The notes: generated by a model from the sequence alone, not told the origin. Numbered from the stretch's first letter, positions 11,327 through 59,678 are shown. The stretch: 64,000 nt of DNA from Candidatus Latescibacterota bacterium (GCA_965206595.1 OZ242214.1:5440001-5504000), one strand, 5' to 3'. A program made the numbers and translations.

Positions 11327-12692
<1,366 letters not shown>

Positions 12693-33410: not shown

Positions 33411-33683
33411 GTTTTTCTTCTCGCTAAAAAGGGTCTTGAAAGGGTCTTGGAAGCCCGCTGTTCCCGGGCGTCCGGCAGGGCTTGGCTTCGGGAGTCGGCC
33501 GTGGCAGGGGGCCATGCCCGGCCAGAAGGCGCGGTTGGTGGTGGTCGATGAATGAACAGCATCTGGACGACGGCATATCTTAACGTATCCGGAAGGCCGG
33601 ACTCAAGAACGAAGCGGGTGCCCGGAAGGACTGCGATGCGCCCTCGACTGTTTTCAGGCTCTCGAAAGCGGAAAGGAAACACG

Positions 33684-34478
33684 GTGCTGAAAGCCGGGAT
33701 ATTTCTCGATATGGACAACCTGAGCCGCTGCGGCGGCTACGCCCTCCAGTTTCGCCAGGTCAAGGCCCTGGTGGAGGGTCAGGGGGGGCTGGTTCTGCGG
33801 GCGAACGCCTACATGGCGATCAACAGCGAGCGCGAAAGCGCGGACCTGGAGTACCAGCAGAAAAGAGAGGATTACCGCACCTGGATGCGGCGGGAAGGGT
33901 ATCACCTGGTGCTCAAGGAGATGAAGCAGTACCGCGATCCGGAGGGCCAGGTCATCGTCAAAGCGAACGCCGATCTCGAGCTGGCCATAGACGCCCTGCT
34001 GCAATCGGCCAACCTCGACTACGTGCTTCTGGGCAGCGGCGACGGCGACTTCGTGCGCCTGGTGCGGGCCTTGCAAAACAGGGGCAAACGGGTCGATCTG
34101 CTGTCGTTCATGAACACCAGCAAGGAGCTGCGCCAGGAAGTGGACAACCATTTCTCGGGCTACCTGGTGCCCGGCATCCTGCCCGATGAACGCGGCGCGG
34201 CCGGGCGCATCAGGGGGATCCTGCACGCGGTCAACGAGGAGAAGGGGTACGGCTTCCTTACGGTTCGGATCGGCATGGAGCTCGACAGCGTGCGCGAGGA
34301 CATCTTCCTGCACATCTCCGACCTGCAGACCGTGAAGGGCGGCGCCGTGACCAACGCCCTGTTCGCCCAGTTCAAGACGCGGGGTACCATCATCGAGTTC
34401 GAGCTGACCGAAGAGGACGGCAGGGCCAAGGCGGTCAAGGCGGTGGAGTTTCTGCCCGAGCTGTGGGGGACGAACTGA
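33684..34478 (+). CDS. NYN/LabA (PIN-fold) protein with C-terminal cold-shock OB domain
   Basis: GIFLDMDN, KANADLELAID, LGSGDGDFVRLV..LQNRGKRV; C-terminal KGYGFL...DIFLHIS (RNP1/RNP2-like). Confidence 0.88.
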   Translation: MLKAGIFLDMDNLSRCGGYALQFRQVKALVEGQGGLVLRANAYMAINSERESADLEYQQKREDYRTWMRREGYHLVLKEMKQYRDPEGQVIVKANADLELAIDALLQSANLDYVLLGSGDGDFVRLVRALQNRGKRVDLLSFMNTSKELRQEVDNHFSGYLVPGILPDERGAAGRIRGILHAVNEEKGYGFLTVRIGMELDSVREDIFLHISDLQTVKGGAVTNALFAQFKTRGTIIEFELTEEDGRAKAVKAVEFLPELWGTN

Positions 34479-34499
34479 GATACGGGACTGGGAAGACCC

Positions 34500-34900
34500 A
34501 TATGCTGCTACGGGAACGAAAGGGCGGTCACTGGGAAGGATTTTTAGCGCCATCGTACGACCACGCTTCATCATTGGGGCGTGAGCTTCAGGATACGCGG
34601 CGCCATAAGCTGATGAAAGAAAACCGGATCGGGGACTATGCCGAAAAAGGACGCGGCGCGATTTACTGGTCGGAGGAAGATCCGCACGGTCCCAGTCCCT
34701 TGGAGTTGGTACGACGGGCTGCTCGCAGCTATCCGAATCTATTCCTTCCCGCCCTGGGAAAAGTTGCAAAATTGGGGAAGGGATCCCTGGACGACCTGGT
34801 AAACCGCGTGCCCAGTGGCTGGATGTCTGCATCAGCCAAGGATTTTGCGGTTTCTTTGATGCACTACAAATTTGAGCAGTTACAGGAGTTAATTCCATGA
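34500..34900 (+). pseudogene. HipA-like kinase, C-terminal fragment
   Basis: FLAPSYDHASSLGREL motif plus C-terminal helices; the ATP-binding lobe and DRH motif are missing. Confidence 0.65.
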
Positions 34901-35469
34901 GCGAGAGGACCTTGTTTTTGGCTTGGCAGGACAACCAGTTGAGCAGGGCATGGTTTCCGGTGGGGCGGCTGGATGCCGACGTTGAACGTCCTCTGTATCG
35001 CTTCCGCTACATCGGTGGCGCGGAGAAAGCGCAACAGCAGGTAGGGTTTCCTCTGCTGATCGAGTTTCCCGAATTGAAAGAGGACTATCAATCTTCGGAG
35101 CTGTTTCCCCTGTTCCGGAATCGGGTTATGAATCGGGCGAGGCCGGACTTGGACAAATATTTGCGCAGTCTTGATCTGACCTCGGAAGCTGACCCTATTG
35201 AGATCTTGTCGGCAAACGGAGGCCGTCGGGTGACGGACGCTTACGAAGTCTTCCCGAAACTCGACAAGCAGGCAGATGGAAGCTTCACTTGCCGGTTTTT
35301 TCTGCACGGCTGGCGACATACCAACAAAGCCGCCAAGGATCGAATCAGCTCCCTGAAGCCAGGAGAAGAACTGTACGTCACCCTGGAGCTGACCAATCCG
35401 GCGACCGTCATGGCCTGGAACCTGCACGAACCAATGAGCAATGCTGATTTCCAGCCTTTGGTCCCTTGA
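34897..35469 (+). pseudogene. HipS-like/HIRAN-domain protein, probably truncated near 35410
   Basis: LFLAWQD..RAWFPVGRL, ELFPLFRNRVM...RPD, GGRRVTD.YEVFP, FFLHGWRH, LKPGEEL...ELTNP, after which the sequence is unrelated. Confidence 0.65.
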
Positions 35470-35718
35470 TGGGAGCTGCGCGGCTGGTTTGTCCTCGCCG
35501 GAAGCAGGTGTTCTCCGGTAGACAGTAGATACAGACCTGTCGTCAGTCCGGGGAACGTGCACTCTCTCCTTGCGATCCGCCGCCTTAGCAGGCTGGTCTC
35601 TGTTGCAAAGCCCTCCGAGCATGGCGTCCGGGTCGAGTTGACGGTCCTGTCGTCCATCGCACCTTGCTGATCCCGTTTTTGATCAGTTCCTGCCCCAATC
35701 GGCCTCCCCGCACCCGGC

Positions 35719-35796
35719 TATTCAACAAATCGGTTGACAACCATTTCGTCGAACCCGATGTTATTCAACAAATCGGTTGACAACTATTCTGTTGAA
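35719..35796. repeat. Two imperfect 35-bp direct repeats (43-bp period), each with two CAAC-N6-GTTG palindromes; probable operator array
   Basis: TATTCAACAAATCGGTTGACAACCATTTCGTCGAA (35719-35753) and TATTCAACAAATCGGTTGACAACTATTCTGTTGAA (35762-35796). Confidence 0.85.
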
Positions 35797-35809
35797 TGAG
35801 TGAAAAGCC

Positions 35810-37060
35810 ATGAGATCATCGACCGGCCGCTGGGTAAGGGGCGGGGATTTTTTCGACCGCGAGTCCGAGTTGCAGGTACTGGAGACGCGGATTCGGGACG
35901 GCAACCACATGCTCCTGACGGGACAGCGGCGCATGGGCAAGACCAGTATTGCCCGGGAGCTGGGGCGCCGGCTCGAGGCAGAAGGTTGGGTCTTCCTTTT
36001 CGCTGATGTCGAGGGAGCGACCTGCGCGGAGGACGCGATCGCGGATATCGCACGGGCCGTGCATCCGGTTCGCCCGATCATGTCGCGGGTTGCGCGTGCT
36101 GGTACCGCGATGAAACGCTTGTTCGGCAGTGTCGAGGAAATCGGCGCCCACGAGTTTCGGGTGAAGTTCCGTGCCGATCTGAATGCCGGAAACTGGCGAC
36201 ACCAAGGGGAGCAATTGCTCCGTGCATGCGCCGGGCAGGACAAGCCGGTGCTCCTCGTCATCGACGAGCTGCCGATATTCCTCAAGCGTGTGCTTCGCGG
36301 TGAAGATGGCGTCCACCGGGTCGACGAGTTCCTGAGCTGGTTGCGCGGTGTTCTTCAGGCTCTCGGAGGCGGCTCCCCGGTCCTCATCGTTTCCGGCAGC
36401 ATCGGGCTCGCACCTCTCGTAAAGCGGCTGGGCATACCCGACCGCATCAATCATCTCGAACCATTCCGTTTGGGGCCGTGGGACCGGGATACCAGTGTCG
36501 AGTGTTTCCAACGTCTTGCGGAGAGCTGCGGACTGCGGGTCGAGGACGGCGTGGCAAACGCGGTGTACGAGGCGCTGGGCGTCGGCATTCCCCACCTTGT
36601 GCAGTCCTTCTTCGCACGGTTGCGGGACCACGCCACCATGGAGGGGCGGGACCGAGTGATGGTGGAGGATGTGGAGGAGGTCTATCGCACGGAGCTTCTC
36701 GGCCCTTCGGGCCAGAACGATCTCGTCCACTACGAGACGCGGCTCAAGGAGGCCCTGGAAGATGAGAGCCACACCATCGCCATGGAGATCCTCGCCGAGG
36801 CAGCTACCCAGGCGGTATTCACATCAAGCGCTCGGCGTAGCCTCGAAAAGCTCTACTCCCCGGTGGTCGACGATGCGCCCGGCCGTATTGCGGACACCCT
36901 CGAGATCCTGATGCACGACGGTTATCTCGAAGCCGGCGAGGATGGCCATCGCTTCCCGTCCCGCTTGCTCAAGGACTGGTGGTCGGCTCGCTTCCGCGAC
37001 CACCACAGACCCCTCGAAGGCCGCCGTTCCGGAGGCGAATCGCCGGGGGAAGTGCAATGA
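35810..37060 (+). CDS. P-loop ATPase (AAA/STAND-like, archaeal-ATPase type)
   Basis: FFDRESEL, Walker A GQRRMGKTS, Walker B LLVIDELP, VSGS, GIPHLVQ, C-terminal wHTH-like LEILMHDGYL. Confidence 0.88.
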   Translation: MRSSTGRWVRGGDFFDRESELQVLETRIRDGNHMLLTGQRRMGKTSIARELGRRLEAEGWVFLFADVEGATCAEDAIADIARAVHPVRPIMSRVARAGTAMKRLFGSVEEIGAHEFRVKFRADLNAGNWRHQGEQLLRACAGQDKPVLLVIDELPIFLKRVLRGEDGVHRVDEFLSWLRGVLQALGGGSPVLIVSGSIGLAPLVKRLGIPDRINHLEPFRLGPWDRDTSVECFQRLAESCGLRVEDGVANAVYEALGVGIPHLVQSFFARLRDHATMEGRDRVMVEDVEEVYRTELLGPSGQNDLVHYETRLKEALEDESHTIAMEILAEAATQAVFTSSARRSLEKLYSPVVDDAPGRIADTLEILMHDGYLEAGEDGHRFPSRLLKDWWSARFRDHHRPLEGRRSGGESPGEVQ

Positions 37061-40000
37061 CCATAGGCGATCGGCGGATTCGCAAGTTCAATCCGGGGAC
37101 GTTCCAGTCCGACGAGGAGGTGATCGAGCAGTTCGTGGTCAGGGAACGCGAACTCGATATCGTGCTGGAGGTTCTCCGTGGGAACACCGATTCACCATCG
37201 TGCCAGCACGTTCTGGTCGTCGCCCCTCGCGGGCGGGGAAAGACCATGCTGCTGGCTCGGGTTGCGGCGCAGGTGAATACCGACGACCACCTCTCCGAGA
37301 GTCTTTTGCCGGTCCGGTTCATGGAGGAGAGCCACGAGATATTCAATCTCGCCGATTTCTGGCTCGACACCTTGCTCTACCTTGCGCGTGAGAGCGCCAG
37401 GCACGATTCCGGGCTCGCTGAGGAGTTGCGGCAAACGCACGACGACCTGGCCAATCGCTGGCACGAGGAGTCACTCGCGGATCGCGCCCATGCGGCTGTC
37501 CTGGAAGCGGCGGACCGGCTGGGCAAGAAACTCCTCCTCATGGTCGAGAACCTGCAGGCGCTGTGCGGAAACGTGGACAAAGATTTCGGTTGGAAGCTGC
37601 GCGCGGTGCTGCAATCGGAACCCCAGATCATGCTGGTCGCCACCGCCACGAGCCGTTTCGAAGGTCTGGACGACGCGGAGCAGCCGTTCTTCGAACTGTT
37701 CCGCATCGTCGCTCTGGAACCGCTGGCCACGGAAGAGTGCCGTCGTCTGTGGCAGGTCGTCAGCGGGGATGAGGTTAGCAAGCGGGAGATCAGGCCGCTC
37801 GAGATCCTGACCGGCGGCAGCCCCCGCCTCCTGGTCATCGTCGCCGCGTTCGCGCAGCACCGCTCCTTGCGCCAGTTGATGGAAGAGTTGGTGGAGTTGA
37901 TTGACGAGCACACCGAATACTTCCGCGGTCACCTCGAGGTACTGGCCAAGGGGGAACGCCGCGTGTATATCGCGGTGATCGACCTGTGGCGACCGTCGCG
38001 CACGGGCGAGATCGCGGCGCGGGCGCGAATGGACGTCCGAACCGTATCGACCCTGCTCGGGCGGCTCGTCATACGGGGTGCGGTCATCGTTGAGGGGAGC
38101 GGCAAGAAGCGGATGTACGCCGCTGCGGAGCGCCTCTACAGCATCTACTACAAGCTGCGGCGCGAGCGGGACGAGGCGGCCATAGTTGCAAACCTGATCC
38201 ATTTCCTAGTGGCGTTCTACGAGATAGGCGAATTGTACCAGATGTCCGAAAAGCTGATTACGGAAGCGGAGGAGTCGAAGGTCATTCGCGAGGGAATCGA
38301 GCGAGCGGTAGCAGAAACCCCTCAAATTGCGAATGCTTTCTCGAAGGAGGCGTTGTCAAGTATCGGTCACGATATCGCCCCGGTCGGGGAGATTAGCGGA
38401 AAAGTAAGAAGACTGCTGACAGAGATTGTAGATGCGTTAGAGGCTGATGCATTCGAAAAAGCAGTTGAGTTAGTTGATCGAGCAATCATTTGGAGAAAAA
38501 CAAGTGTTGTAGAACTCTCGGAGCCAGGTATAGCTGCCCTTCTTGTTGTGAAAGGGATTGCCCAACAGTCTCGCGGAAACTTTGAAGCGGCGATTGCTAC
38601 TTACGAGAAAATTGTCGAGCACTACGGCGCTAAGGAAGATCCACAGATCCAAGGTTCTATTGCGGTTGCGCTGGTCAACAAAGGATGTGTGTTAGGCAAG
38701 CTTGGGGAATTAGATGGTTCGATTTCGACTTTTGAGGAAGTGGTCGCGCGTTTTAGCACCAATTGCCAACCAGACCTCCAATCGAGGGTGGTCGGGGCGC
38801 AGTTAAAAAAAGGAAATACACTAGAAAAATTAACCAAATTTCCTGAGGCAATCGCTACCTACGACGAGGTAATCGAAAGATTCGGTGACAGTAAGGCACC
38901 ACACCTTCAGATTCCCATCGCCAGGGCCTTATCTGCGAAAATAGATTTGAAAAGACAACTCGGTGAATATGCGGCGGCAATCGATGCTTGCGAGGAGCTT
39001 GTCGCACGCCATGGTACCGATAGCGCATCAGACCTCCAGGTTCTCGTTGCCTACGCGTTGTCTAGAAAGGGAGAAATGCTGAGAAAACGCGACGAATTGG
39101 ATAAGGCAATTGCGACCTACGACGAGGTAGTCGAACGTTTTGGGATCAGCGGTGCACCAGAGCTGCAGCTTCCGGTTGCTTCAGCGCTGGATATAAAGGG
39201 AGACATTCAAAGGCTGCAAAAAAATTTCCTTGGCGCGATGACGTCCTACAACAAAGTAGTCGTTCTTTATGGGGACAGCGATGCACCGGAACTCCAGATT
39301 TCTATCGCCGGGGCCCTGTCCAAAAAGGGAGATACACTCAGGCAAGAAGGTGACTTTGCGGACGCAATTTCGGTTTACGAGGAAGTGGTCGCCCGGTATG
39401 GGGACAGCGAAGTGCCAGAACTTCAAGTGAATGTCGCTTGGGCCTTGGTGTACAAAGGAGATGCGCAGAGACTACAAGGCGATCCCATTCTTGCGATAAC
39501 GACTAATGACGAGCTAGTCGCACGCTTCGGCGCTAGCGATCTATCGGATCTTCAGCTGCTTATAGCCTGGGCCTTGTTCAACAAAGGTGATACACGGATA
39601 CAGCTCGGGGATTTTCCAGGAGCAATTGCGGCTTGTGACGAGATAATCGATCGTTTCGGGTCTAGTGACGTACCAACGCTTCAGTATCCAATCAGGTTGG
39701 CGTTGTCCCTGAAAAGTATGCGGCAAATCAAGATTGGCCGTGCCCGAGAAGCTCTAAATACCTGTGGGGAGCTTGAACTAAGACTCCGCGCCTTGAGCGA
39801 GAACGAGAAGAACGAGTTCACATGGAGAACGGCGTGTGTGGGGGCGCTGGCGTTGATGGTCCAGAAAAACCCTCGGGCCGCTATGGAAACGTTCCGCTCT
39901 GCTTATTCTGTCTTCGTACCTAGCGACAAAACGATGATGCACGAGATGCTAAGGATTGTGCCTGACCTGATCGCAAGCGGTGCCTCGGCGCATGACCTTG

Positions 40001-40176
40001 TCGAGATCCTGTCGGGCGACGGGAACAAATCCGGCGCATTGGTTCCCCTGGTCGTCGCCCTCCGCCAGCATGTGGGCGAAGCGGTTCCCGCGCCTGCGGA
40101 AGTGCTGGAGGTCGCCGCGGATATCCGCAAGCGCATCGAGGCAACAGCGGCTAAAGCTGTTTCCGTGGCACACTGA
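37057..40176 (+). CDS. STAND-like ATPase-wHTH-TPR protein (~1039 aa)
   Basis: ATGA overlap with the upstream ATPase; FVVREREL, APRGRGKT, Walker B variant LMVEN, TGGSPRL, HTH TGEIAARARMDVRTVSTLLGRLV, about ten 43-aa repeats. Confidence 0.88.
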   Translation: MTIGDRRIRKFNPGTFQSDEEVIEQFVVRERELDIVLEVLRGNTDSPSCQHVLVVAPRGRGKTMLLARVAAQVNTDDHLSESLLPVRFMEESHEIFNLADFWLDTLLYLARESARHDSGLAEELRQTHDDLANRWHEESLADRAHAAVLEAADRLGKKLLLMVENLQALCGNVDKDFGWKLRAVLQSEPQIMLVATATSRFEGLDDAEQPFFELFRIVALEPLATEECRRLWQVVSGDEVSKREIRPLEILTGGSPRLLVIVAAFAQHRSLRQLMEELVELIDEHTEYFRGHLEVLAKGERRVYIAVIDLWRPSRTGEIAARARMDVRTVSTLLGRLVIRGAVIVEGSGKKRMYAAAERLYSIYYKLRRERDEAAIVANLIHFLVAFYEIGELYQMSEKLITEAEESKVIREGIERAVAETPQIANAFSKEALSSIGHDIAPVGEISGKVRRLLTEIVDALEADAFEKAVELVDRAIIWRKTSVVELSEPGIAALLVVKGIAQQSRGNFEAAIATYEKIVEHYGAKEDPQIQGSIAVALVNKGCVLGKLGELDGSISTFEEVVARFSTNCQPDLQSRVVGAQLKKGNTLEKLTKFPEAIATYDEVIERFGDSKAPHLQIPIARALSAKIDLKRQLGEYAAAIDACEELVARHGTDSASDLQVLVAYALSRKGEMLRKRDELDKAIATYDEVVERFGISGAPELQLPVASALDIKGDIQRLQKNFLGAMTSYNKVVVLYGDSDAPELQISIAGALSKKGDTLRQEGDFADAISVYEEVVARYGDSEVPELQVNVAWALVYKGDAQRLQGDPILAITTNDELVARFGASDLSDLQLLIAWALFNKGDTRIQLGDFPGAIAACDEIIDRFGSSDVPTLQYPIRLALSLKSMRQIKIGRAREALNTCGELELRLRALSENEKNEFTWRTACVGALALMVQKNPRAAMETFRSAYSVFVPSDKTMMHEMLRIVPDLIASGASAHDLVEILSGDGNKSGALVPLVVALRQHVGEAVPAPAEVLEVAADIRKRIEATAAKAVSVAH

Positions 40177-40268
40177 TCTGCGATTTCACAGGGGTCCTGA
40201 CTGGCCCTGTCTCATCGCCTGGTTCGACCTGGTGTCCTCCCGGGGGCCGAGCACTGCTTTCGTGAAAC

Positions 40269-42083
40269 TCAATCCAGGCGCCTGAAGCCTCCGTACCCGA
40301 ACCGGTCCTCCTCCCCCTCGACGCCCCCCTCGGGGAAGTACTCGTCCCAGCGGGAGGTAACCCGCCGCGTGACCTCCTCGTCGGCCGTCAGCTCGTCCGG
40401 GAAACCCGGCTTCAGCCGGCAATCGAAAACCACGGGAGCGGTGAAGCAGGGGTGGTGCCGGTGCAGGCGGACCTGGGCTGCGCAGATGTCGGCGGCCGGC
40501 TCGAAGCGGGTGAACGCCGTCCACAGAAAGCGGACGTTGCTGGCGGCGATCCCGGAGTCGTCGGCGAGGAAGATCAGCGGCCATTCCGAAACCGCGGGAT
40601 CGGCTGCCAGCCTTTGCCCGTAGTCCGGGTCGGCGGCATACCCGGGGCCGGCGACCACCAGGCATCCGGCGCAGTAAGGCCGGGCTTCCGCGGCCCCGGC
40701 AGGCAGCGGTCCGGTGAACTCGGCGGGGAGGGTGCGATGCGGCTCCCCGACGCCGAGCAGGATCCCCTTGCTGCCTTCGTTCACGGCCGGGCCGGAGTAG
40801 TCGAGGGTGTCCATGGCGAGGTTGGCGATGACGAACAGATCGGTCTCGAAGCGCGTCCGCGCCAGCACGTGCTCCAGCACCTGGCGGAAGTCCCGCAGCT
40901 CGACCCCGGCGCCGTCGAGCACGACCAGGAACTTGGTCAGCGCCAGCTGCCCGCCGTCCTCGCCGAAAATGCGGAAGGCGAACTTCATGGCCTCGCGGGG
41001 ATAGCGCTCTTCCACGCAGATGCTCGACAGGCAGTGGTACCCGGTCTCGCCGTAGCTCCAGATCCCCTTGATCGCCGGCATGACCAGGCTGGTCAGCGGC
41101 TCCATCAGTTTCTGGATGTAGTTGCCGAGGTAGAGGTCCTCCTGCGGCGGCTTGCCGACCACGGTGGCCGGGAAGACGGCGTCGCGCCGGTGGTAGACGT
41201 CCCTGACCTCGAGGACGGGGTAGTCGTGGCGCAGCGAGTAGTACCCGTAATGGTCGCCGAACGGCCCCTCGGGCAGGCGCCTGTGCGGCGGCACGCTGCC
41301 GGTGATGGCGAACTCCGCCTGGGCGAGCAGGGGCAGCGGACCGCCGGGGTCGCGCACCCGCTGGAGCTTGCTGCCCTGCAGCAGGGAGGCGAGCACCAGC
41401 TCCGGCATCCCCTCGGGCAGCGGCGCGATGGCGGCAAGGATCAGGGCCGGAGGCCCGCCGACGAAGATCGCCAGCGGCAGAGCCTCGCGGCGCTGCTCGG
41501 CGACGTGGTAGTGGAATCCGCCCCCCTTCTGGATCTGCCAGTGCACGCCGAGGGTGTGCGGATCGTGACGCTGGATGCGGTATATGCCGAGGTTGTGCTG
41601 GCCGCTGTCCGGGTGCTCGGTGTAGACGAGCGGCAGGGTGATGAAGTGGCCGCCGTCCTCCGGCCAGGTCTTGATAAGCGGCAGGCGCCGCAGGTCGGGG
41701 GAGGACTGCCGGCACTCGAGAACCGGGCCGCGGCGGACGGTGCGCAGCCCCAGCCGCATCCCTTCCCGCGCCAGCCCACGGTAGCCCCAGAGCTTGCGCG
41801 GCGCCAGCGAGGAGAGCTGGTGCGCCACCTCGACCAGCTCTTTAAGGAAGCGCTCCGGCCGCGGTCCGAACGCCAGGTCGACCCGGCGGGAGGTGCCGAA
41901 AAGGTTGGTGGCCGCGGGGAAGTCCGCCCCTTCGACGCGTTCGAACAGCAGCGCCGGTCCGCCCGCGGCGATGACGCGTCGGTGGATTTCGGCCAGCTCG
42001 AGATCGGAGTCGACCGGGGCTTTGACCCGCGCCAGTTCCCCTTCTTTTTCGAGCAGCTGGAGGAAGGATCGGAGGTTGTTCAC
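40269..42083 (-). CDS. ubiD: UbiD-family (prenyl-FMN) decarboxylase, long form
   Basis: GGPALLFERV, NLFGT, WPEDGG.FITLP, NLGIYR, EGPFGDHYGYY, VGKPPQED, DTLDYS. Confidence 0.9.
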   Translation of the reverse strand: MNNLRSFLQLLEKEGELARVKAPVDSDLELAEIHRRVIAAGGPALLFERVEGADFPAATNLFGTSRRVDLAFGPRPERFLKELVEVAHQLSSLAPRKLWGYRGLAREGMRLGLRTVRRGPVLECRQSSPDLRRLPLIKTWPEDGGHFITLPLVYTEHPDSGQHNLGIYRIQRHDPHTLGVHWQIQKGGGFHYHVAEQRREALPLAIFVGGPPALILAAIAPLPEGMPELVLASLLQGSKLQRVRDPGGPLPLLAQAEFAITGSVPPHRRLPEGPFGDHYGYYSLRHDYPVLEVRDVYHRRDAVFPATVVGKPPQEDLYLGNYIQKLMEPLTSLVMPAIKGIWSYGETGYHCLSSICVEERYPREAMKFAFRIFGEDGGQLALTKFLVVLDGAGVELRDFRQVLEHVLARTRFETDLFVIANLAMDTLDYSGPAVNEGSKGILLGVGEPHRTLPAEFTGPLPAGAAEARPYCAGCLVVAGPGYAADPDYGQRLAADPAVSEWPLIFLADDSGIAASNVRFLWTAFTRFEPAADICAAQVRLHRHHPCFTAPVVFDCRLKPGFPDELTADEEVTRRVTSRWDEYFPEGGVEGEEDRFGYGGFRRLD

Positions 42084-49323: not shown

Positions 49324-52008
<2,685 letters not shown>

Positions 52009-52079
52009 CCCCCGGCATCGGCCTTCGCCGTAACCGGCCCCGAGGGGTCACCCGCTTCCATGTCGGGAAGGAGCAACCC

Positions 52080-53147
52080 ATGCAGCGGGAAAGACTCGAA
52101 GAAGCAGAGTCGCTCTATCGTGGCCTGTTCGAGGAATCGCACGACGCCCTTCTCATCACCGAGCGGGACGGGACCATCGTCGCCGCCAACGCCGCGGCCG
52201 CTGCCCTGTTCGGCTATGAGGGCGCCGAGCTGACCGGCTTCGACATCCGCAGGCTCTACCTGAATCCCGACGACCGCGCGCGCTTCCAGGAAGCGATCGA
52301 GGGCGCCGGGTTCGTGCGCGACTTCGAGGTCGCCTTCCGCGCCCGCGACGGCCGCCGCCTCGACTGCCTGTTGACGACTGCGGTCCGGCGAGGCGCGGAC
52401 GGCACCGTAACCGGCTACCAGGGCATCATCCACGACGTCACCGAACGCCGGCGCATGGAGAAGCGGCTGCGCGATTACCAACGCAGGCTGCGCTCGCTCA
52501 CGCTCGAGCTCTCCATGAACGCGGAACGGGAGCGGGCGCGCATCGCCGCAGGCCTCCACGACGGCGTCCTGCAGCAGGTGGTGGCGGCGCAATTCAAGCT
52601 CAAGGCACTGCAGCGCAGCGGGGACCGCGAGGAAGGCCTGATCGCCGACCTGCGGGACCTGCTCGATCAGATGGCTCACGACCTCCGCTCCATGACCTTC
52701 GACCTCAGTCCCCCGGTGCTCCGCAGGCTCGGCCTGGTACCCGGCCTGCAGTGGCTCGGCGAACAGATCGAGGACCTGCACGGGCTGGCGGTGGACCTGG
52801 CGGCCGAAGGGGACTGCGCGGTTCCCGACCCCGACATGCGTGCGCTTGCGTTCCGGTGCATCCGCGAGCTGCTCCGCAATGTGGCGAGGCACGCCGATAC
52901 GGACCGGGCGCGCGTCTTCCTGCGTGGCGACGAGACGCATCTGCAGGTGGCGGTAGAGGATGAGGGGGAGGGCTTCGACAGCGGACACGATTTCGCCGCA
53001 GGCAGCCACTTCGGCCTGTTCAGCATAAGGGAACGGGTGACCCTTGTCGGCGGCTGTTTCAAAATCGAGGCGGCGCCGGGGAAAGGGACGCGCTGTCTGC
53101 TGGCGATCCCGTTCTCCCCGTCCAGACAGGAGGACGGTGCTCAATGA
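52080..53147 (+). CDS. Cytoplasmic PAS-domain histidine kinase (HisKA_3 type)
   Basis: RBS AGGAG; PAS (YRGLFEES...GIIHDVTERR), ERARIAAGLHD, ELLRNVARHA, DEGEGF, FGLFSIRER; no TM segment. Confidence 0.92.
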   Translation: MQRERLEEAESLYRGLFEESHDALLITERDGTIVAANAAAAALFGYEGAELTGFDIRRLYLNPDDRARFQEAIEGAGFVRDFEVAFRARDGRRLDCLLTTAVRRGADGTVTGYQGIIHDVTERRRMEKRLRDYQRRLRSLTLELSMNAERERARIAAGLHDGVLQQVVAAQFKLKALQRSGDREEGLIADLRDLLDQMAHDLRSMTFDLSPPVLRRLGLVPGLQWLGEQIEDLHGLAVDLAAEGDCAVPDPDMRALAFRCIRELLRNVARHADTDRARVFLRGDETHLQVAVEDEGEGFDSGHDFAAGSHFGLFSIRERVTLVGGCFKIEAAPGKGTRCLLAIPFSPSRQEDGAQ

Positions 53148-53791
53148 CTGCGAAAGTTCTGTTGGTCGACGATCACAAGATCGTGCGCGAAGGGCTGCGT
53201 GCGCTGCTTGAAGGAGAAAGCGACCTCGAGGTGGTGGGGGAGGCCGGGGACGGCCTGGAGGCCATCGGCTTGGTCTCCGACCTCCGGCCCGACATCGTGG
53301 TCATGGACATCAGCATGCCCGGTCTGGACGGCGTCGAGGCGACGCGCCGGATACGGGCCGGGGAGCCGGACGTGAAGGTGGTGGCCCTGTCGGTCCACGG
53401 GGAGAAGCAGTTCGTGACCGGCATGTTGCGGGCGGGGGCCTCGGGTTACCTGCTGAAAACGGAGGCCGCCTACAACCTGGTGCAGGCCATCCGGACGGTA
53501 CGGGCAGGCGGCCGGTACGTAAGCCCGGAATTGATCGACCCCGGCGTTGAGGATTTCGTGCAGCAGCCCATCGACGAGGGGGAGCAGCCCGTACTGACTC
53601 CGCGCGAGCGAGAAGTGCTGCGACTCATCGCCGAAGGGAAGAAGAACCGTCAAATAGCCGGTGAACTGTATGTGAGCGAGAAAACCGTCGACAACCATCG
53701 CCAGCACATCATGCAGAAACTCAACCTGCACAACACGGCCGACCTCACCCGGTACGCCATCAGGGAGGGGATTTCGTTTCTCGATTCGTGA
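53144..53791 (+). CDS. NarL/LuxR-family response regulator
   Basis: VLLVDDH, VMDISMP, GYLLK, LTPREREVL...IAGELYVSEKTVDNHR. Confidence 0.95.
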   Translation: MTAKVLLVDDHKIVREGLRALLEGESDLEVVGEAGDGLEAIGLVSDLRPDIVVMDISMPGLDGVEATRRIRAGEPDVKVVALSVHGEKQFVTGMLRAGASGYLLKTEAAYNLVQAIRTVRAGGRYVSPELIDPGVEDFVQQPIDEGEQPVLTPREREVLRLIAEGKKNRQIAGELYVSEKTVDNHRQHIMQKLNLHNTADLTRYAIREGISFLDS

Positions 53792-53847
53792 GTTCCCGCC
53801 CAGCGAAGTTTTTTCCGGAAGCAAAAAAGACTCTGGAACCCGGAAAA

Positions 53848-53865
53848 ATGAGGAGTTTACCCCAT
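53848..53865. promoter_or_regulatory. Putative NarL/LuxR-type operator
   Basis: Imperfect palindrome ATGAGG-AGTTTA-CCCCAT ~50 nt upstream of the thioredoxin-like gene. Confidence 0.4.
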
Positions 53866-53917
53866 AGGACACCCCTGGATCCCTGGCTACCTTGGGTGGC
53901 GAAAGGATACTTGGGAT

Positions 53918-54490
53918 TTGAAATCCTTCGCACTCACACCAGTACTCAGAATGGTCGCGGCCATTGCGGTAGGAACGACCGCAGGCTACGGGATGTTGCA
54001 CCTGCATAAAGCTCCCCCGGTCAAGAAACCACCGCTCCAGGAAATAATGTTCCAAGAACAGGACGACGGGCTCAGTCACTTGGTGGGAAAGGATCTCGCC
54101 CCTTACTGGGGGGAGACACGCACCGCTGACCCAAGCTTTCAGGGGATACGTGACGGCGTTCTGCTGTTCGTCGACCCGGCGTGTGATGCATGCGATCCGG
54201 TGTACCCGGTGGCTCTTCAGGTTCAGGAGGAGTTGCCGGTCTTTCTCGCCGTCGATCATCCGCCGTCGGCGGATCTGGACAATTACCTCGCTTATTTTGG
54301 CGCCGGCGACCTGCCGGTACTGCACGAGACCCTGGAACTGCGTCGGGGGCTTCCTGTCGACTACTGGCCGACTGCCGTTCTGGTCCGAGACGGGCGAGTG
54401 GCAGCAGCTGGCAACGGCAGAGTCACGGTCAGCCATATACTCACCGAGGCGCTGCAGGATTCGGGCCGATCCCATGAACCCCTTAAATAA
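53918..54490 (+). CDS. Membrane-anchored thioredoxin-fold protein (CxxC)
   Basis: TTG start after AAGGA; N-terminal hydrophobic anchor; LLFVDPACDACDPVY and cis-Pro motif DYWPTAVLVRDG. Confidence 0.75.
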   Translation: MKSFALTPVLRMVAAIAVGTTAGYGMLHLHKAPPVKKPPLQEIMFQEQDDGLSHLVGKDLAPYWGETRTADPSFQGIRDGVLLFVDPACDACDPVYPVALQVQEELPVFLAVDHPPSADLDNYLAYFGAGDLPVLHETLELRRGLPVDYWPTAVLVRDGRVAAAGNGRVTVSHILTEALQDSGRSHEPLK

Positions 54491-54900: not shown

Positions 54901-55310
54901 ATGTCTTTAGGGATTGGTTGTGAGGTGCTCCGATTGGTTAATCGTTTTCGACCTACGGGCACCTGCAGTCAGGTCTGCTGGGCTCACCAGCGGCGCACCC
55001 TTGAGAACTTTGTGGTGCGAGACGGAGAGGCCGAGCGCGTTTGTCACCATCTGTCGGACTTTAGCGAGCAGGCTGTTTTCTTGGTGGCATTAAGTCCCCA
55101 TAGCGGAACCTCCGTCCCGGGCTGACTTCCAGAACTATATCGATATTTTTCGAGCTATCGAAAAGGAGTGGAGCCAACCAACAACGAGACCCGAACGAGC
55201 GCTTCCCCATGGAGTGTTGTGGCGCGCCCAGCTTCGGTACCCACAGTGCCCAAGAAAGCCGCTTCTTAGCGGCCTCTGCTCACGGTGAGTATACTCTGCG
55301 CCAGCAACAA
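54901..55310 (+). mobile_element. Degenerate IS66-family transposase relic
   Basis: Fragments across frames: QVCWAH.RR (54970), GVEPTNN (55165), ERAL.HGVLWR, SFGTHS, LLTV..TLRQQ. Confidence 0.65.
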
Positions 55311-55359
55311 CGGCTCTATTGTGAGTCTGGAGAATGCCGTGCAGAGAGCTAAAATAGCA

Positions 55360-57624
55360 GTGAACCGAATCGTCCCCCTTTTTTTGATTTTTGCACTTTC
55401 ACGGGTGCTACAGGCTGTTGAATTTCCAGGTAAGGTTTTTCTGGGGCCTCAGCTGAAGCTTGTTTTAAACAGTTCCCCTCAGACTTTCAGAGTACCGGGG
55501 GCGAAAGCCGTCGAACAGTTGCCAATCTACGTTGTGTTGCAGGCCGATCCTGTCCGGCTCCAAGCCGCCGTCGTTGCATGCGGGGGTAGCCTCGGCACGG
55601 TTATCGACGACATCGCCACCGCCTTCCTTCCCCCGGGGGACTTGGTTCGGCTCGCGCGGGAGGCGGGAGTTTCCCGTATAGAGTTGGTTGGGCAAGCCAC
55701 ACCCCACCTAGAGCGCTTCAAAACCCATGCTTATCTCAGCGACCCTCGAAAACAACAGTCCGGCGGCAGGTCCTTCCTTGGAGAGGAGGTCCTTCCCGAA
55801 CTGCCGGACGCAACGGCCTTGCACTATGAGATCCCACCCCTCGACCATGCCTACACTGGAAAGGGGGTGGTGATCGGTTTCTTCGACAGCGGGATCAACT
55901 TCCATCATCTTGATTTTCGTGACCCCGGTGATCCAAGCAAAAGTCGGATTCTGTCCATCTGGGACCCGCAGGATTCCCGGGGACCTTCTCCACCCGGACG
56001 CAGGGGTACCGAGTGGACAAGGGAGCAGATCGAAGCAACCCTGAATGGAGATTCAAACTCTCCTTCGGGAGATCAAAACGGTCACGGAACCGCGGTAGCC
56101 GGGACTGCCACTGGTAATGGGACAGGAACAGGAAGTTATGCCGGAGTGGCGCCCGAGGCGGATATCGTTATGGTGATCAGTCGCGGATTATCATACTTAG
56201 AAGCTGCAGACTACATCTATCAGAAAGCGGCGGAAATCGGCAAACCCGCGGTGGTCAATTTCAGTAAATTGGGAAGTGTCATTCCTGGCTCCCTCGAGGA
56301 GAAAGGATTGGAGAAGCTTGTTCGGGCCGCCCCGGGTCGTGCCTTTGTCGCAAGTGCCGGGAATGGAGGAAACTACATTGGACACTGGGGTGGATTTTCC
56401 CTGCAACAGGAACCCCTATGGACATACTACAAAGTTTTCGCCGACTCATCTGTTTTGGATGAGCCTGAGAATGGTTTCATTTGGCTCGAGGGCATCGTGC
56501 TTGGAACTTCGAATGGAAGCGGGTTTCTTGCCCTAGCCCTGGAAGAGGAACCGGAAGGACAAGACATTCAAGGAACCCAGATTACAAGGAGCGCTTGGAT
56601 CAACCTGTCGGAGCTTGCCGCAGATTCCTTTGTCAATGCCAGCAGCGATACTATGAAATCTGAGAGCGGAGATATTTTGGGTATAGTTAACTTGGCGGCT
56701 TCTCAATTGGAAAGCCGGAGCATCAGTTTTTCAATCCATGCATTTCAGTTTCCCAAAATTCGGAACAATGCTCCTGTTGTGTGGCGATTTATGGCTAAAG
56801 GGCAGGGCATCATCCACGTTTGGACCCATTTTGGGGAGCCCGTCACCAGGAGTGATCTAAGCTCCGAAACCGGATATCGCCCGTTGGACAATCGTTACAT
56901 GGTCCCTTCCCCGGCTGCCTCCGGGGAGGTAATCGCGGCAGGAGCCTACGCCAATATTCAGCCCCCAGTTCTCCCCCGCGTGGATCAGGGTGATTTGCTG
57001 CCACTCTCGAGCAGGGGGCCGACCATTCACGAACGGATCAAACCCGATCTCGTAGCCCCCGGAGTCTTATATACCAGTTCCCATGTCGGGATCGATAAGC
57101 GCGTCGGTGTTTACGGCACCAGCTTTTCTGCCCCGGTGGTCGCCGGTGCCGTTGCCCTCTACTTCGAGCGCTTTCCGCAGGCCACCAACCGGGACGTCTG
57201 GCGCGCCCTCACCGAATCAGCCGCTTCCGACGAGTTCACTGGGGTGACCCCCAACTTCGACTGGGGGTACGGCAAGCTCGATGTCGCCGCGCTTCTGCAG
57301 GAACCGCCCACCGTGGTTGCCGCCGAGACGGGGGAGGTTCGCCCCGCTGGCTTTGCCCTTGAGCAGAACTACCCCAACCCGTTCAACGGGCGCACCTCGA
57401 TCAGCTACCAGCTTCCAGGCCCTGGTGCGGTCGAGTTGATCCTCTATGGCCTGCTGGGCCAGCCGGTGCGGCGCCTGGTGTCCGAGTACCAGGGCGCCGG
57501 GTTTCACCGTGTCGCGTGGGACGGAACCGATGACGGGGGGCATCCGGTCGCCAGCGGGGTATATCTGTACCGGCTGAAGGCGGGTGACCAACTGCTTTCG
57601 CGCCGTCTCGTTCTCGTTCGCTGA
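55360..57624 (+). CDS. S8 (Csp-like) subtilase 1 with prodomain and C-terminal FlgD-Ig/T9SS-A-like domain
   Basis: Signal VNRIVPLFLIFALSRVLQA, prodomain, GKGVVIGFFDSG, GHGTAVAG, SAGN, GTSFSAP, LEQNYPNPFN...VASGVYLYRL. Confidence 0.88.
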   Translation: MNRIVPLFLIFALSRVLQAVEFPGKVFLGPQLKLVLNSSPQTFRVPGAKAVEQLPIYVVLQADPVRLQAAVVACGGSLGTVIDDIATAFLPPGDLVRLAREAGVSRIELVGQATPHLERFKTHAYLSDPRKQQSGGRSFLGEEVLPELPDATALHYEIPPLDHAYTGKGVVIGFFDSGINFHHLDFRDPGDPSKSRILSIWDPQDSRGPSPPGRRGTEWTREQIEATLNGDSNSPSGDQNGHGTAVAGTATGNGTGTGSYAGVAPEADIVMVISRGLSYLEAADYIYQKAAEIGKPAVVNFSKLGSVIPGSLEEKGLEKLVRAAPGRAFVASAGNGGNYIGHWGGFSLQQEPLWTYYKVFADSSVLDEPENGFIWLEGIVLGTSNGSGFLALALEEEPEGQDIQGTQITRSAWINLSELAADSFVNASSDTMKSESGDILGIVNLAASQLESRSISFSIHAFQFPKIRNNAPVVWRFMAKGQGIIHVWTHFGEPVTRSDLSSETGYRPLDNRYMVPSPAASGEVIAAGAYANIQPPVLPRVDQGDLLPLSSRGPTIHERIKPDLVAPGVLYTSSHVGIDKRVGVYGTSFSAPVVAGAVALYFERFPQATNRDVWRALTESAASDEFTGVTPNFDWGYGKLDVAALLQEPPTVVAAETGEVRPAGFALEQNYPNPFNGRTSISYQLPGPGAVELILYGLLGQPVRRLVSEYQGAGFHRVAWDGTDDGGHPVASGVYLYRLKAGDQLLSRRLVLVR

Positions 57625-57659
57625 ACCTGCCGACATTGGATTTTCGCGGGGGAGTCAAG

Positions 57660-59630
57660 ATGAAGCTCACCATTCTGAGTTTCCTTTCCCTGCTCACGCA
57701 GGTGCCCCTCACAGCGGCCGAAGTCCCCGCAACTTCTGGAACCTCACCTCCCCTGAACAGGTTGTCTTTCCGTTCCCTGGGTGGTGCGGTAGAAGGAGAA
57801 CCCTCCGGCACTCTCCTCGAATCCCTGTCCGGGGTGACGGCCACCGGCAAGGGGGTGATCGTCGGCATCATTGACTCCGGGATCGACTGGCGCCACCCCG
57901 ATTTTCGCGATCCGGCAGACAGCCTGCACAGCCGCATCCTCAGCATCTGGGACACGAAACTTTACCTGTCGATGGAAGAAGGTCCGCCTCCGCCGGGGTT
58001 CGATTACGGCCGGGAGTGGACGCGGAAGGAAATCGAGGCCGCGCTGCGCGGCGAGAGACGCGGTCCGCCGCGCGATCCGGTTCTCGATCACGGGACCTAT
58101 GTCGCCGGCATCGCCGCCGGCAACGGCAACGCCGATCCCCGATACCGGGGCATGGCACCCGATGCCGAAATCGTCGTGGTCACTGTTGGTGCGGAATTGA
58201 CTCTGCCGGACGCTCTCAGTTACATCTTTGGAGTTGCGGAGCGCGAAGGCCTGCCGTCAGTGGTGAATTATAGCGGGGGATTGGCTTGGGGCTACCGGGA
58301 AGGAAACCTGGAAGAGTTCTTGCGCGAGCAACCGGGCAGGGCCCTCGTAGCCTCAGCGGGAAATGTGGGCAACCAGCGGCATGTCCGCTTTGAATTGGAG
58401 GAGGAGACCTCCTTTTACACGATTTTTCAGACCCTTGAGTGGGTCCCTCCGTTCTGGAGGTCGGTGGAAGTACGCGCAAGTGATTTCCGCTGGCTTGTCG
58501 CCTACCACCAGGGTCCGGGCGAGGCTTGGGTAGGAACAGGACCTTCGGCTGAAGAGATGGTCTGGCGTTCCTCCAATCAGCTTGCCGATCTGGGGGGAGA
58601 ACCGGAAAGGCATCCATTCCTCGTTGAGGAACCCGAATACGAGATTGACAGTCCCGTAAATGCCGACGGAGATACCTTGGGGCGCGTCGCTTGGTCGGGC
58701 CATCGCGTCGGGGAAAACAAGTGGCTGGAGATCATGGTCGAGAACTGGGTGCCGGAAGTGTCGGATTGGCGGCTTGTGGCGAAGGGGAGCGGAGTGCTCC
58801 ATGTCTGGATGCTGGCAGATGCTCCGCAGCAGGTTACGAATTCCCGGTCGAACCATGACCCGTATTTCCACCCCCACGACAACCTCTACACCCTCTCCTA
58901 TCCCTCTACGTCGCCGGAAGTGATTTCGGTCGGCGCCTTCGCCAACCGGGTGCCGGATGCTTACGAGAACCTGCAGGCAGGCGACCTGATGCCGTTCTCT
59001 TCAAGGGGACCTTCCCTGGACGGCCTGCTGAAGCCTGACCTGGTTGCTCCCAGTGTTCTGACCGCGGCGCGCAGCGGCGACTCGACGAGATACCGCGACG
59101 GCTTCGGTCCGCGAGGGGGGGGGACCAGCGCCGCGTCCCCGGTCGTTGCAGGGGCAGTGGCCCTGTATTTCGAGCGGTTTCCCCGGGCCACCAACCGCGA
59201 GGTCTGGCGGGCTCTCACCGAATCGGCGGTTTCCGACGAGTTTACCGGGGAGACCCCCAATTTCGACTGGGGGTACGGCAAGCTCGACGTCGCCGCCTTT
59301 CTGCAGGAACCGCCCACGGTGGTCGCTGCCGAGGCCAGGGAGGTTCGCCCCGCCGGCCTTTCGCTCGAGCAGAACTACCCCAACCCGTTCAACGGGCGCA
59401 CCTCGATTAGCTACGGATTACCGAAGCCCGGAGCGGTGGAGCTGACCCTCTACGATCTGCTGGGCCAACCGGTGCGACGGCTGGTGTCGGAGTACCAGGG
59501 CGCCGGGTCTTACCGTATCGCCTGGGACGGAGCGGATGATGAGGGGAACCAAGTCGCCAGCGGCGTGTATCTGTACCGGCTGAAAGCGGGGCACCAGCAG
59601 CGGGCCCGGCGGCTCGTTCTCGCTCGTTAA
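57660..59630 (+). CDS. S8 (Csp-like) subtilase 2, no evident prodomain, with C-terminal sorting-like domain
   Basis: MKLTILSFLSLL signal; GIIDSG, DHGTYVAG, SAGN, GTSAASP; NYPNPFN tail. Confidence 0.9.
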   Translation: MKLTILSFLSLLTQVPLTAAEVPATSGTSPPLNRLSFRSLGGAVEGEPSGTLLESLSGVTATGKGVIVGIIDSGIDWRHPDFRDPADSLHSRILSIWDTKLYLSMEEGPPPPGFDYGREWTRKEIEAALRGERRGPPRDPVLDHGTYVAGIAAGNGNADPRYRGMAPDAEIVVVTVGAELTLPDALSYIFGVAEREGLPSVVNYSGGLAWGYREGNLEEFLREQPGRALVASAGNVGNQRHVRFELEEETSFYTIFQTLEWVPPFWRSVEVRASDFRWLVAYHQGPGEAWVGTGPSAEEMVWRSSNQLADLGGEPERHPFLVEEPEYEIDSPVNADGDTLGRVAWSGHRVGENKWLEIMVENWVPEVSDWRLVAKGSGVLHVWMLADAPQQVTNSRSNHDPYFHPHDNLYTLSYPSTSPEVISVGAFANRVPDAYENLQAGDLMPFSSRGPSLDGLLKPDLVAPSVLTAARSGDSTRYRDGFGPRGGGTSAASPVVAGAVALYFERFPRATNREVWRALTESAVSDEFTGETPNFDWGYGKLDVAAFLQEPPTVVAAEAREVRPAGLSLEQNYPNPFNGRTSISYGLPKPGAVELTLYDLLGQPVRRLVSEYQGAGSYRIAWDGADDEGNQVASGVYLYRLKAGHQQRARRLVLAR

Positions 59631-59678
59631 TCTTCGCGAATCTGTTGCGGCTTCTGGGGGTTGCATGGGAAGGTCAGA

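Follow-up and report, generated by a model that had tools for sequence, protein, structure and literature searches.

A mobile pair of ORC/Cdc6-STAND-like NTPases with an exchangeable TPR array and no effector domain: a candidate conflict sensor module in Candidatus Latescibacterota and other bacteria

The stretch of DNA analysed here, 64,000 nucleotides from a Candidatus Latescibacterota bacterium (GCA_965206595.1 OZ242214.1:5440001-5504000; hereafter the window), contains two overlapping genes, A and B. They encode distantly related P-loop nucleoside triphosphatases (NTPases), of which only B carries an array of tetratricopeptide repeats (TPRs). The two genes form an obligate pair with co-evolving cores, exchange the TPR array between close relatives, are preceded by a conserved palindromic element, are gained and lost as a unit and occur in defence islands. 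On balance, the pair is best read as a horizontally mobile, self-contained two-gene conflict sensor module, probably directed against phages or mobile elements, a reading held with modest confidence. What appears to be new, judged from sequence comparison, is a large family named by none of the libraries searched, with a two-NTPase, effector-less and putatively self-regulated design.

Both open reading frames (ORFs) are real, and the stop codon of A and the start codon of B share an ATGA (Table 1), as expected from the first-pass annotation, which had described two coupled P-loop genes from the sequence alone. The probable start of B is a conserved ATG at 37057, preceded by a purine-rich GGGGGA stretch. 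That annotation had assigned canonical Walker motifs but neither sensor nor effector to the first gene, for which Pfam indeed shows AAA families only. The variant Walker A, the VEN in place of a canonical Walker B, the winged helix and the 43-residue repeats it had noticed in the second gene were all recovered, with a repeat number of about nine to ten. Also in agreement with it, searches with Pfam, PADLOC 2.0.0, NCBIfam 20.0 and PHROGs gave no match of A or B to a nuclease, TIR, SIR2 or protease family, and the models of all four libraries fail to name the pair.

A search over one genome per species returned 38 loci, and in all 38 a B-like gene directly follows the A-like gene. In the genome of the window (7.05 Mb), gene A is present four times, with identities of 100, 41, 34 and 29%, and a B gene follows every copy; the NCBI accessions of A and B members, labelled 'ATP-binding protein' and 'tetratricopeptide repeat protein', are adjacent on one contig. 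A and B are the only families present in more than eight of the 38 loci, and thus there is no third conserved gene. The pairing seen in the first-pass annotation is therefore obligate, and the two proteins co-evolve: the identities of A and of B residues 1-400 to the window proteins move together in 36 of 36 rows, from 95/94% down to 30/29%. An hhalign comparison, at 96% probability across the P-loop domain, also identifies the cores of A and B as distant paralogs of each other. A is one full-length frame in 30 of the 38 loci. In eight loci, all from Latescibacterota (L003, L007-L011, L030 and L035), the pair is extended to an A-B-B' array. Small toxin-antitoxin modules lie between B and B' (Fic in L008, MazEF in L009), and a conserved histidine-kinase/propeller gene and a GH113-like gene border the array. 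In L030, an insertion sequence with a DDE_5/DDE_Tnp_1 transposase (L030:10379-11437) lies within A and separates residues 1-215 from 338-416, while both B genes are open.

The family is large and widely distributed. Hosts at 55-95% A identity belong to Latescibacterota, Acidobacteriota (Vicinamibacterales, Bryobacterales), Binatia and Alpha- and Gammaproteobacteria, with cross-phylum identities of 66-75%; hosts at 28-33% include Thiorhodococcus, Rhabdochromatium, Chromatiaceae, Planctomycetota, Myxococcota and one further Acidobacteria genome. With 8000 candidates scored per search, at least 1795 relatives of A and at least 2303 of B were found at E <= 0.001. A profile of the B core, compared with 1.84 billion representatives, retrieved 6123 at E <= 0.001 and 3439 clusters (50% identity) at E <= 1e-30. 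The NTPase core begins within the first 25 residues in 149 of the best 150 of these 3439 clusters, which argues for a family without an N-terminal effector and carries the effector-less description of the window pair over to its relatives. Only four longer relatives of A turned up. One of these, P0260, runs by read-through from an N-terminally truncated A into B and forms a single-member cluster, which is weak evidence for a fusion. P0263 (834 residues, NCBI) combines an AAA_15/AAA_21/ABC-type ATPase with a PF01637-type module that resembles A (23% identity, with 94% of A aligned) and may link the A family to OLD/Abi-type ATPases. Look-alikes in the atlas fall into generic 'ATP-binding protein' clusters only.

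In protein A, residues G43, K44, T45, D152 and E153 are shared without exception by all 18 homologs aligned, and the sequence carries an RRxGKTS motif, an hhhhDE motif, a G..P..Q lid motif and a C-terminal winged helix. In Pfam, AAA_16 (9e-09) and AAA_22 (1e-06) score over the cut-off, with no further domain. A profile of A matched the solved structures 2qen from Pyrococcus abyssi (2.1e-09) and 2fna from Sulfolobus solfataricus (6.7e-05). The same two structures head the PDB matches of its AlphaFold2 model (predicted local distance difference test score, pLDDT, 78), followed by RuvB, Orc1/Cdc6 and TnsC; Apaf-1, CED-4, NRC4 and 6mfv are not among the listed fold matches of A. The precomputed Pfam column lists PF01637 (ATPase_2) against many homologs of A, and both window proteins miss its gathering threshold of 33.2 bits (A 23.0, B 22.5). 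Because 2qen and 2fna come first in the profile and fold searches but the Pfam score remains under threshold, the pair is a near relative of PF01637 and not a scored member. It shares a DFFDRE-type N-terminal motif and the same core/lid/winged-helix order with 2qen and 2fna, but the solved PF01637 members are single proteins of unassigned function and have no TPR partner.

Protein B is built from RGxGKT and hhhh(D/E)N motifs and an invariant TGGxPR, followed by the winged helix. Its P-loop is intact: the first residue of the Walker A is A, G or S across homologs, and the more distant ones have GQRGMGKT. N165 of the Walker B is invariant in 21 of 21 aligned sequences, and the motif ends in EN or DN in every true homolog among 48 rows; one row, L037:15618-17081, has TPR similarity only and is unaligned there. 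Pfam detects AAA_16 and many TPR families (1e-16 to 1e-27), together with weak winged-helix matches to TrmB (0.0079) and DUF7342. The TrmB match and the helices and strands of an AlphaFold2 model of residues 1-480 (pLDDT 83) place the winged helix at about residues 298-370, and in paralogous B-type proteins it matches MarR_2 (3.7e-08), HTH_27 (1.2e-06) and TrmB (8.4e-07). No match to GerE/LuxR, Trans_reg_C or BTAD was found in A or B with Pfam. A profile of residues 1-480 weakly matched ORC4 (4e-04), as well as MarR- and ArsR-type winged helices, among solved structures. In the PDB, the B model is closest to 2fna, Orc1 (2v1u, 2qby) and 2qen (template modelling scores normalised to the target, 0.61-0.65), followed by Apaf-1, the STAND-TPR protein 6mfv, CED-4 and NRC4. 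With fold matches spanning PF01637, Orc1/Cdc6 and STAND proteins, A and B are therefore both predicted to be core-lid-winged-helix modules at the border of the Orc1/Cdc6 and STAND lineages. A complex prediction for A and B(1-480), using custom-made alignments, scored 0.00 and 0.00 and makes no call either way on contact.

The definition of STAND proteins attributed to Leipe et al. in 2004 is said to comprise a P-loop core with Walker A and B motifs, a helical lid with a GxP-type motif and a winged helix. These core, lid and winged-helix features are present in both A and B, whereas the tripartite effector-NTPase-sensor plan is not, since B consists of NTPase and sensor and A of the NTPase only. 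The curated models (NB-ARC, NACHT and nSTAND1-6) give sub-threshold scores only: for A, nSTAND6 reaches 15.1 bits (cut-off 27.7), nSTAND3 14.1 (27.2) and nSTAND1 13.8 (27.1), and for B, nSTAND_NTPase5 reaches 15.9 bits against a cut-off of 34. The label 'STAND-like' of the first-pass annotation thus holds for the domain architecture and, in B, for the fold matches to Apaf-1, CED-4 and NRC proteins, but not for any nSTAND Pfam family, and PF01637 and Orc1/Cdc6 are closer.

The TPR array is the variable part of B. Self-similarity of B peaks at lags of 43 and 86 residues; seven regular units are recognised by motif and about nine to ten fit into residues 487-900, with no tandem repeat in the array at the DNA level. 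The G+C content of this cassette is 0.46-0.54, compared with 0.63 in the remainder of the gene. Compared with its nearest relative, L001, the locus has 93-95% DNA identity in gene A, in the flanks and over the opening 1250 bases of B, whereas 38307-39833 has no nucleotide match and is 1527 bp long here versus 1017 bp there. In terms of protein sequence, A shares 95% identity with its L001 counterpart and B(1-400) shares 94%; the TPR part reaches 34% and the C-terminal cap 77%. This replacement of a cassette within an otherwise almost unchanged gene supports the earlier assignment of the TPR part as the sensor, and a fast-changing one.

Across 36 loci, the identity of the TPR part is only 24-47%. 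Nine other close locus pairs were compared, and in six of them (L017/L021, L018/L019, L012/L013, L031/L032, L031/L034 and L007/L011) the TPR part is unaligned or its repeat number has changed, with periods of 129 or 105 nucleotides; the remaining three are aligned throughout or weakly diverged. The C-terminal cap is aligned in all homologs compared, including those of 27-33% identity. Short B variants of 522-585 residues in L004-L006 keep the core and the cap and lack the TPR array. In metagenomes (four runs, one from each of four studies), A and the B core have a summed contig depth about 1.4 to 90 times that of the TPR part, depending on the bin, and many contigs diverge near 38180. Other genomes in the samples may thus share the constant part only, a tentative reading given that the depths are sums over organisms.

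A second conserved component lies upstream of A. The two copies of a 33-bp palindromic element (Table 1) have a chance expectation of 0 in 100 shuffles, and copy 1 includes the -35-like hexamer TTGACA (35734-35739). All 19 upstream regions in an alignment across several phyla contain GTTGAC unchanged, and their consensus reads TTGACA, 17 nucleotides, TATATT, a second element copy and an AAGGAG-type ribosome site. From this layout, the element is a putative promoter with palindromes over the -35 region and the transcript start. The -10 of the window (GATGTT) is weaker than the family consensus, and a sigma-70 scan of 35400-40400 gave 0 promoter-like sites by the rule of the tool. The strict pattern is found in 14 of 30 close loci, always within 115 nucleotides upstream of A. 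One strict match lies elsewhere, a solo copy with similar flanking bases (L002:2487-2515) 7.4 kb upstream of the pair, and the empty site of a same-genus genome (L048, G104:C3:4675000-4690000, reverse strand, about 12426-12548) keeps exactly one copy. These solo copies look like deletion scars, and the element may have a role in recombination. An integron cassette or attC origin of the palindrome was considered and rejected, as integron integrase pieces score 119.9 and 104 bits against a cut-off of 265 and both copies lie upstream; Rfam gave no match for the palindrome.

The other three pairs of the genome and distant pairs have their own repeated variants upstream of A, e.g. GTTGCCAAC, TTGCCAAAA and TTGTTGTACAGC. 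Second B genes, which have no A of their own, are preceded in 8 of 8 cases by a duplicated GTCAAC-N6-GTTGAC dyad with TTGACA and TATTAT. Given a palindrome that travels with the pair and the MarR_2, HTH_27 and TrmB matches of the winged helix, sequence-specific DNA binding by a B-type protein, with autoregulation, would be the simplest reading. This lends indirect support to one of the outputs suggested in the first-pass annotation, namely DNA binding. Autoregulated two-gene modules of the toxin-antitoxin kind are small self-repressed operons with a palindromic operator that overlaps the promoter; in the pair, operator-like dyads over the promoter are present and conserved, and repression would be putative.

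The pair is horizontally mobile and lies at a gain/loss hotspot, as shown by its patchy distribution, its cross-phylum identity, an empty site and broken copies. Across the phylum, 43 of 168 genomes have a match to A (E <= 1e-20), among the high-quality ones 12 of 52; matches occur in 10 of 49 genera and, within one genus, in 11 of 31 genomes, and four genomes contain fragments. The same-genus genome without the orthologous pair is collinear on both sides, and the distance from the NYN gene to the UbiD-family gene is 123 bp there versus 5787 bp here. The insert comprises the pair and remnants of a HipA-like/HIRAN module. The remnants are the C-terminus of a HipA-like kinase (34463-34900) and a truncated HIRAN-domain protein (34897-35469) of 190 residues, compared with 245-248 in L004 and L006. 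In L004, this relative of full length matches the PADLOC candidate PDC-M03B (3.9e-61), and the segment 34487-35416 is absent from both the near-identical locus L001 and the same-genus empty site. Directly upstream, a gene at 33552-34478 on the plus strand, absent from the first-pass annotation of the pair, encodes a 308-residue protein in which an NYN ribonuclease-like domain is fused to a cold-shock domain. Since it is kept in the same-genus genome lacking the pair, it belongs to the backbone and lies outside the module. It was also rejected as a hidden effector, being retained at the pairless site, and its linkage to the pair is confined to syntenic kin and L004.

The neighbourhood of the pair was analysed for proteins of at least 90 residues within 5 kb, with each family represented once. 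This selection gave 244 proteins, of which 238 were annotated; the other six, from L001, correspond to window genes for which an annotation existed and were left out. PADLOC was then run on 40 chosen proteins. Named or candidate defence genes occur near the pair in 10 of the 38 loci: type I restriction-modification methylase/specificity genes (L002), AriAB (2e-63), AbiL/PDC-M38 and PDC-M03B (L004), a type IIG enzyme (E = 0), PsyrA and PDC-S32 (L005), HipA_C/HIRAN (L006), a type IIG gene (L018), DruA (8e-111) and PDC-S01 (L019), PDC-S03 (L023), AbiEii (L024), a DrmMI-like gene (L026) and a reverse transcriptase with a DruA-like gene (L029). The distances are about 5 kb or less, the exception being PDC-S01 of L019 at 4 to 5.2 kb upstream. 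Six further loci have toxin-antitoxin genes alone (L003, L008, L009, L011, L022 and L036) and five have mobile-element genes alone (L014, L016, L025, L030 and L031); L012 contains an EVE-domain gene and L001 the NYN gene only.

The paralog pairs of the window's genome have similar surroundings. Pair 2 (L043, G000:C1:5662000-5677000) lies between an upstream RmrA-like HTH-peptidase (2.5e-38) and a TmtA (Tiamat)-like gene (4e-70), which starts about 10 nucleotides after B' on the same strand and is followed by two small ORFs of unassigned kind; an MkoC-like helicase (5e-65) with a DUF559 nuclease domain is nearby. Pair 3 adjoins HsdM (2.5e-213) and a HEC-01A-like ATPase, and pair 4 a GmrSD_C protein. 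A STAND survey by Lee et al. in 2026 gives a chance of 0.0153 for a random gene to lie within 5 kb of a DefenseFinder system (PMC13581612). The defence neighbours of the 10 loci and the three paralog pairs are suggestively far above this background, in line with the defence-island enrichment that the first-pass annotation had proposed as a check.

Taken together, these features can be arranged into a mechanism in which we infer the DNA-binding partner, the repression, the contact between A and B, the trigger and the whole output step. The module would consist of two paralogous ORC/Cdc6-STAND-like NTPases. B would be the receptor, with the exchangeable TPR array binding the trigger. As its P-loop is intact but its Walker B always ends in Asn, B is likely an ATP-binding switch with poor hydrolysis. 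At rest, its MarR/TrmB-like winged helix would bind the CAAC-N6-GTTG dyads over its own promoter and keep the operon repressed. A, with its canonical Walker A and DE Walker B, would be the invariant partner that supplies hydrolysis or assembly and may serve two B proteins. Upon trigger binding, B, together with A, would change its nucleotide state, oligomerise and leave the operator. The output would proceed via an ATPase-winged-helix assembly of A and B on DNA or on a host factor, and not via a fused enzyme. A bolder version, unlikely as it stands, envisages a widespread, effector-free class of immune receptors, a prokaryotic equivalent of sensor/helper NLR pairs, in which the hydrolysis-impaired sensor B recruits the conserved, sensor-less and catalytically intact A and an ORC-like complex loads on DNA, blocking replication or transcription of the invader or the cell, while the same winged helix shuts the operon at rest.

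Such a division of labour has parallels in eukaryotes. In plant NLR pairs, the sensor combines a recognition module with degenerate nucleotide-site residues, and the conserved helper has canonical motifs and no recognition module. The A-B-B' arrays in 8 of the 38 loci would, by analogy, correspond to one partner serving several sensors. Plant helper NLRs carry an executioner domain (coiled coil or TIR); A has none, and its gene is co-directional and overlapping with B instead of head-to-head. The ORC, too, is assembled from different subunits, only some of which retain the catalytic residues. Among bacterial systems, Avs/AVAST proteins resemble the pair in their P-loop NTPase, helical lid, winged helix and long TPR-like C-terminal sensor, in the exchange of this sensor between close relatives and in their defence-island setting. 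The pair differs in lacking an N-terminal effector in the best family members, in having two NTPase genes, one of them sensor-less, in possessing its own palindromic operator, and in an NTPase nearer to PF01637 and Orc1/Cdc6 than to NACHT or NB-ARC. The PADLOC 2.0.0 Avs models gave no match; the best matches from this library were mad8 for A (2.6e-05, P-loop half only) and Csa3 (0.014) and PDC-S01 (0.041) for B. Eight paralog or distant proteins (A and B of L043, L044, L045 and L031) gave no PADLOC NTPase-model match at 1e-05, and the one match among them, PrimPol, falls in the TPR part of L031 B without a scoring stretch. Some Avs sensors likewise tolerate degenerate ATPase motifs, as stated for KpAvs8 in PMC13581612. 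No effector-less pair of this kind was found in the literature searched, including that survey; six accessions had no match in its supplementary text, which says little about whether its 589 clades include the pair.

Several observations weigh against a conflict sensor. The pair matches no validated defence model, is absent from the phage collection and has a single distant match (25% identity) in the plasmid collection. Fifteen of the 38 loci (L007, L010, L013, L015, L017, L020, L021, L027, L028, L032, L033, L034, L035, L037 and L038) have no defence, toxin-antitoxin or mobile-element neighbours, though some are blank only because shared families were scanned once. As the neighbour calls are single-gene hidden Markov model matches instead of whole-system calls, they compare only loosely with the published 1.5%, and some loci are syntenic kin; the excess is thus suggestive and carries no formal test. 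A is unusually conserved for an immune gene (66-96%) and is split or partial in eight of the 38 assemblies (L012, L017, L023, L026, L028, L030, L033 and L035), and the TPR-less variants of L004-L006 may be decayed or may indicate that the array is dispensable. The full 33-bp pattern, with up to three mismatches, occurs nowhere else in the 7.05-Mb genome than in the two copies of the pair itself, and its 18-bp dyad is not enriched genome-wide (four sites versus three for the reversed control). With neither a regulon nor an effector found, the killing or blocking step is purely conjectural.

These observations leave room for a non-immune switch, a less likely possibility, in which B (with A) would be a transcription factor of the MalT/AfsR kind under the control of both ATP and a ligand, the TPRs would sense a protein or peptide of cellular or environmental origin, and transcription of its own operon, perhaps also of weak unrecognised sites, would be the only direct output. 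The promoter-overlapping palindrome that accompanies the pair, the MarR/TrmB-like winged helix, the strong conservation of A and the B core and the lack of an effector domain all fit such a regulator. So do 6mfv, a STAND-TPR regulator-type protein among the structural neighbours of B, and the repeats of one paralog, which score over the TPR_MalT cut-off. MalT, AfsR/SARP-NB-ARC-TPR proteins and GutR indeed combine a nucleotide switch and a TPR-like sensor with a DNA-binding output, which in the pair is putative. MalT-type factors, however, have a separate LuxR, OmpR or HTH DNA-binding domain and lie beside the operon they control, whereas the sole candidate DNA reader of the pair is the winged helix of the NTPase module, and its own promoter is the sole target found. 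With only A and B shared by more than eight loci there is no obvious regulated operon, and the dyad counts point to none elsewhere. Sensor swaps, several divergent pairs per genome, patchiness and defence islands would also be unusual for a housekeeping regulator. A quite improbable variant is that the pair forms only the sensor half of a system, with an effector encoded elsewhere or varying by genome. The effector-less pair, the varied defence genes often adjacent to it and the TmtA-like gene following paralog pair 2 would be explained in this way, but the neighbours differ from locus to locus and include no defence, toxin-antitoxin or mobile-element gene in the 15 blank loci, the two genes move together and bring their promoter with them, and the operator of the pair was not found shared with other genes.

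The Orc1/Cdc6 likeness raises the very improbable alternative of a replication or maintenance module of a mobile element, with A as an Orc1/Cdc6-like initiator, the repeats as iteron- or origin recognition box (ORB)-like sites and B as an accessory regulator. Like Orc1/Cdc6 and ORC proteins, the pair has an AAA+ core with a C-terminal winged helix (fold matches 2v1u, 2qby, 1fnn and 5uj7), and Orc1/Cdc6, RuvB and TnsC are among the best fold matches. Repeated dyads directly upstream of the initiator gene occur at archaeal origins, and here they adjoin the initiator-like gene A; cross-phylum transfer, frequent gain and loss and the solo element copies at the empty site and in L002 would also suit a mobile replicon. 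Yet the sequence identity is only 12-16%, and B carries a TPR sensor, whose hypervariable array has no place in replication. Integrase, transposase, relaxase and partition genes are not consistently linked, no integron integrase scores over the cut-off, and the insert here holds nothing but the pair and remnants of another small module. The scarcity of phage and plasmid matches, the sigma-70-like layout of the element (TTGACA, 17 nucleotides, TATATT in the consensus) and the lack of a replication context point in the same direction. Orc1/Cdc6 initiators are essential, usually low in copy number and encoded at a replication origin; the pair is accessory, with four copies in this genome and none at the same site in the same-genus genome.

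Table 1. Coordinates in the window of the A-B pair, its sequence motifs and its upstream element
Feature	Position	Strand	Description
Operator/promoter element, copy 1	35721-35753	+	33 bp, putative; two overlapping CAAC-N6-GTTG dyads; 1 mismatch to pattern
Operator element, copy 2	35764-35796	+	Putative; palindromic, both-strand match; 43 bp after copy 1, between putative -10 and start of A
Gene A	35810-37060	+	416 residues; sensor-less P-loop NTPase with AAA+/PF01637-like core, GIPH-motif lid and C-terminal winged helix
Gene A, Walker A	35921-35944	+	GQRRMGKT, residues 38-45
Gene A, Walker B	36251-36268	+	LLVIDE, residues 148-153
Gene B	37057-40176	+	1039 residues; frame open from 36979
Gene B, constant part	37057-38166	+	NTPase core, TGGSPR lid motif, MarR/TrmB-like winged helix
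Gene B, Walker A	37222-37245	+	APRGRGKT, residues 56-63
Gene B, Walker B	37531-37551	+	LLLMVEN, residues 159-165
Gene B, variable cassette	38307-39833	+	Linker and about 9-10 TPR units of 43 residues (residues ~487-900)
Gene B, C-terminal cap	39844-40176	+	About 110 residues, conserved (...PLVVALRQHVGEAVPAPAEVLEVAADI...)

Elsewhere in the window, three tandem paralogous subtilases (55285-61565; a region of lower G+C content, 0.56-0.63) combine Peptidase_S8 with FlgD_ig, two of them with a Por_Secre_tail sorting domain. Directly before them lie two minus-strand ORFs without a Pfam family (51957-53144 and 53141-54475).

Should the pair prove to be an immune module, it would represent a large family missed by current defence finders, whose 3439 B-family clusters span Latescibacterota, Acidobacteriota, Binatia, Proteobacteria, Planctomycetota and Myxococcota. 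It would then illustrate how NOD-type receptor signalling can operate without a fused effector, and would offer a model in bacteria of how sensor and helper NLRs share their tasks. If it is a regulator instead, it would constitute a new architecture of ATP-gated transcription factors, with the winged helix of the NTPase module as the DNA reader. The private operator and the cassette-like sensor make the trigger, the role of the Asn-type Walker B and the role of the sensor-less partner directly testable.

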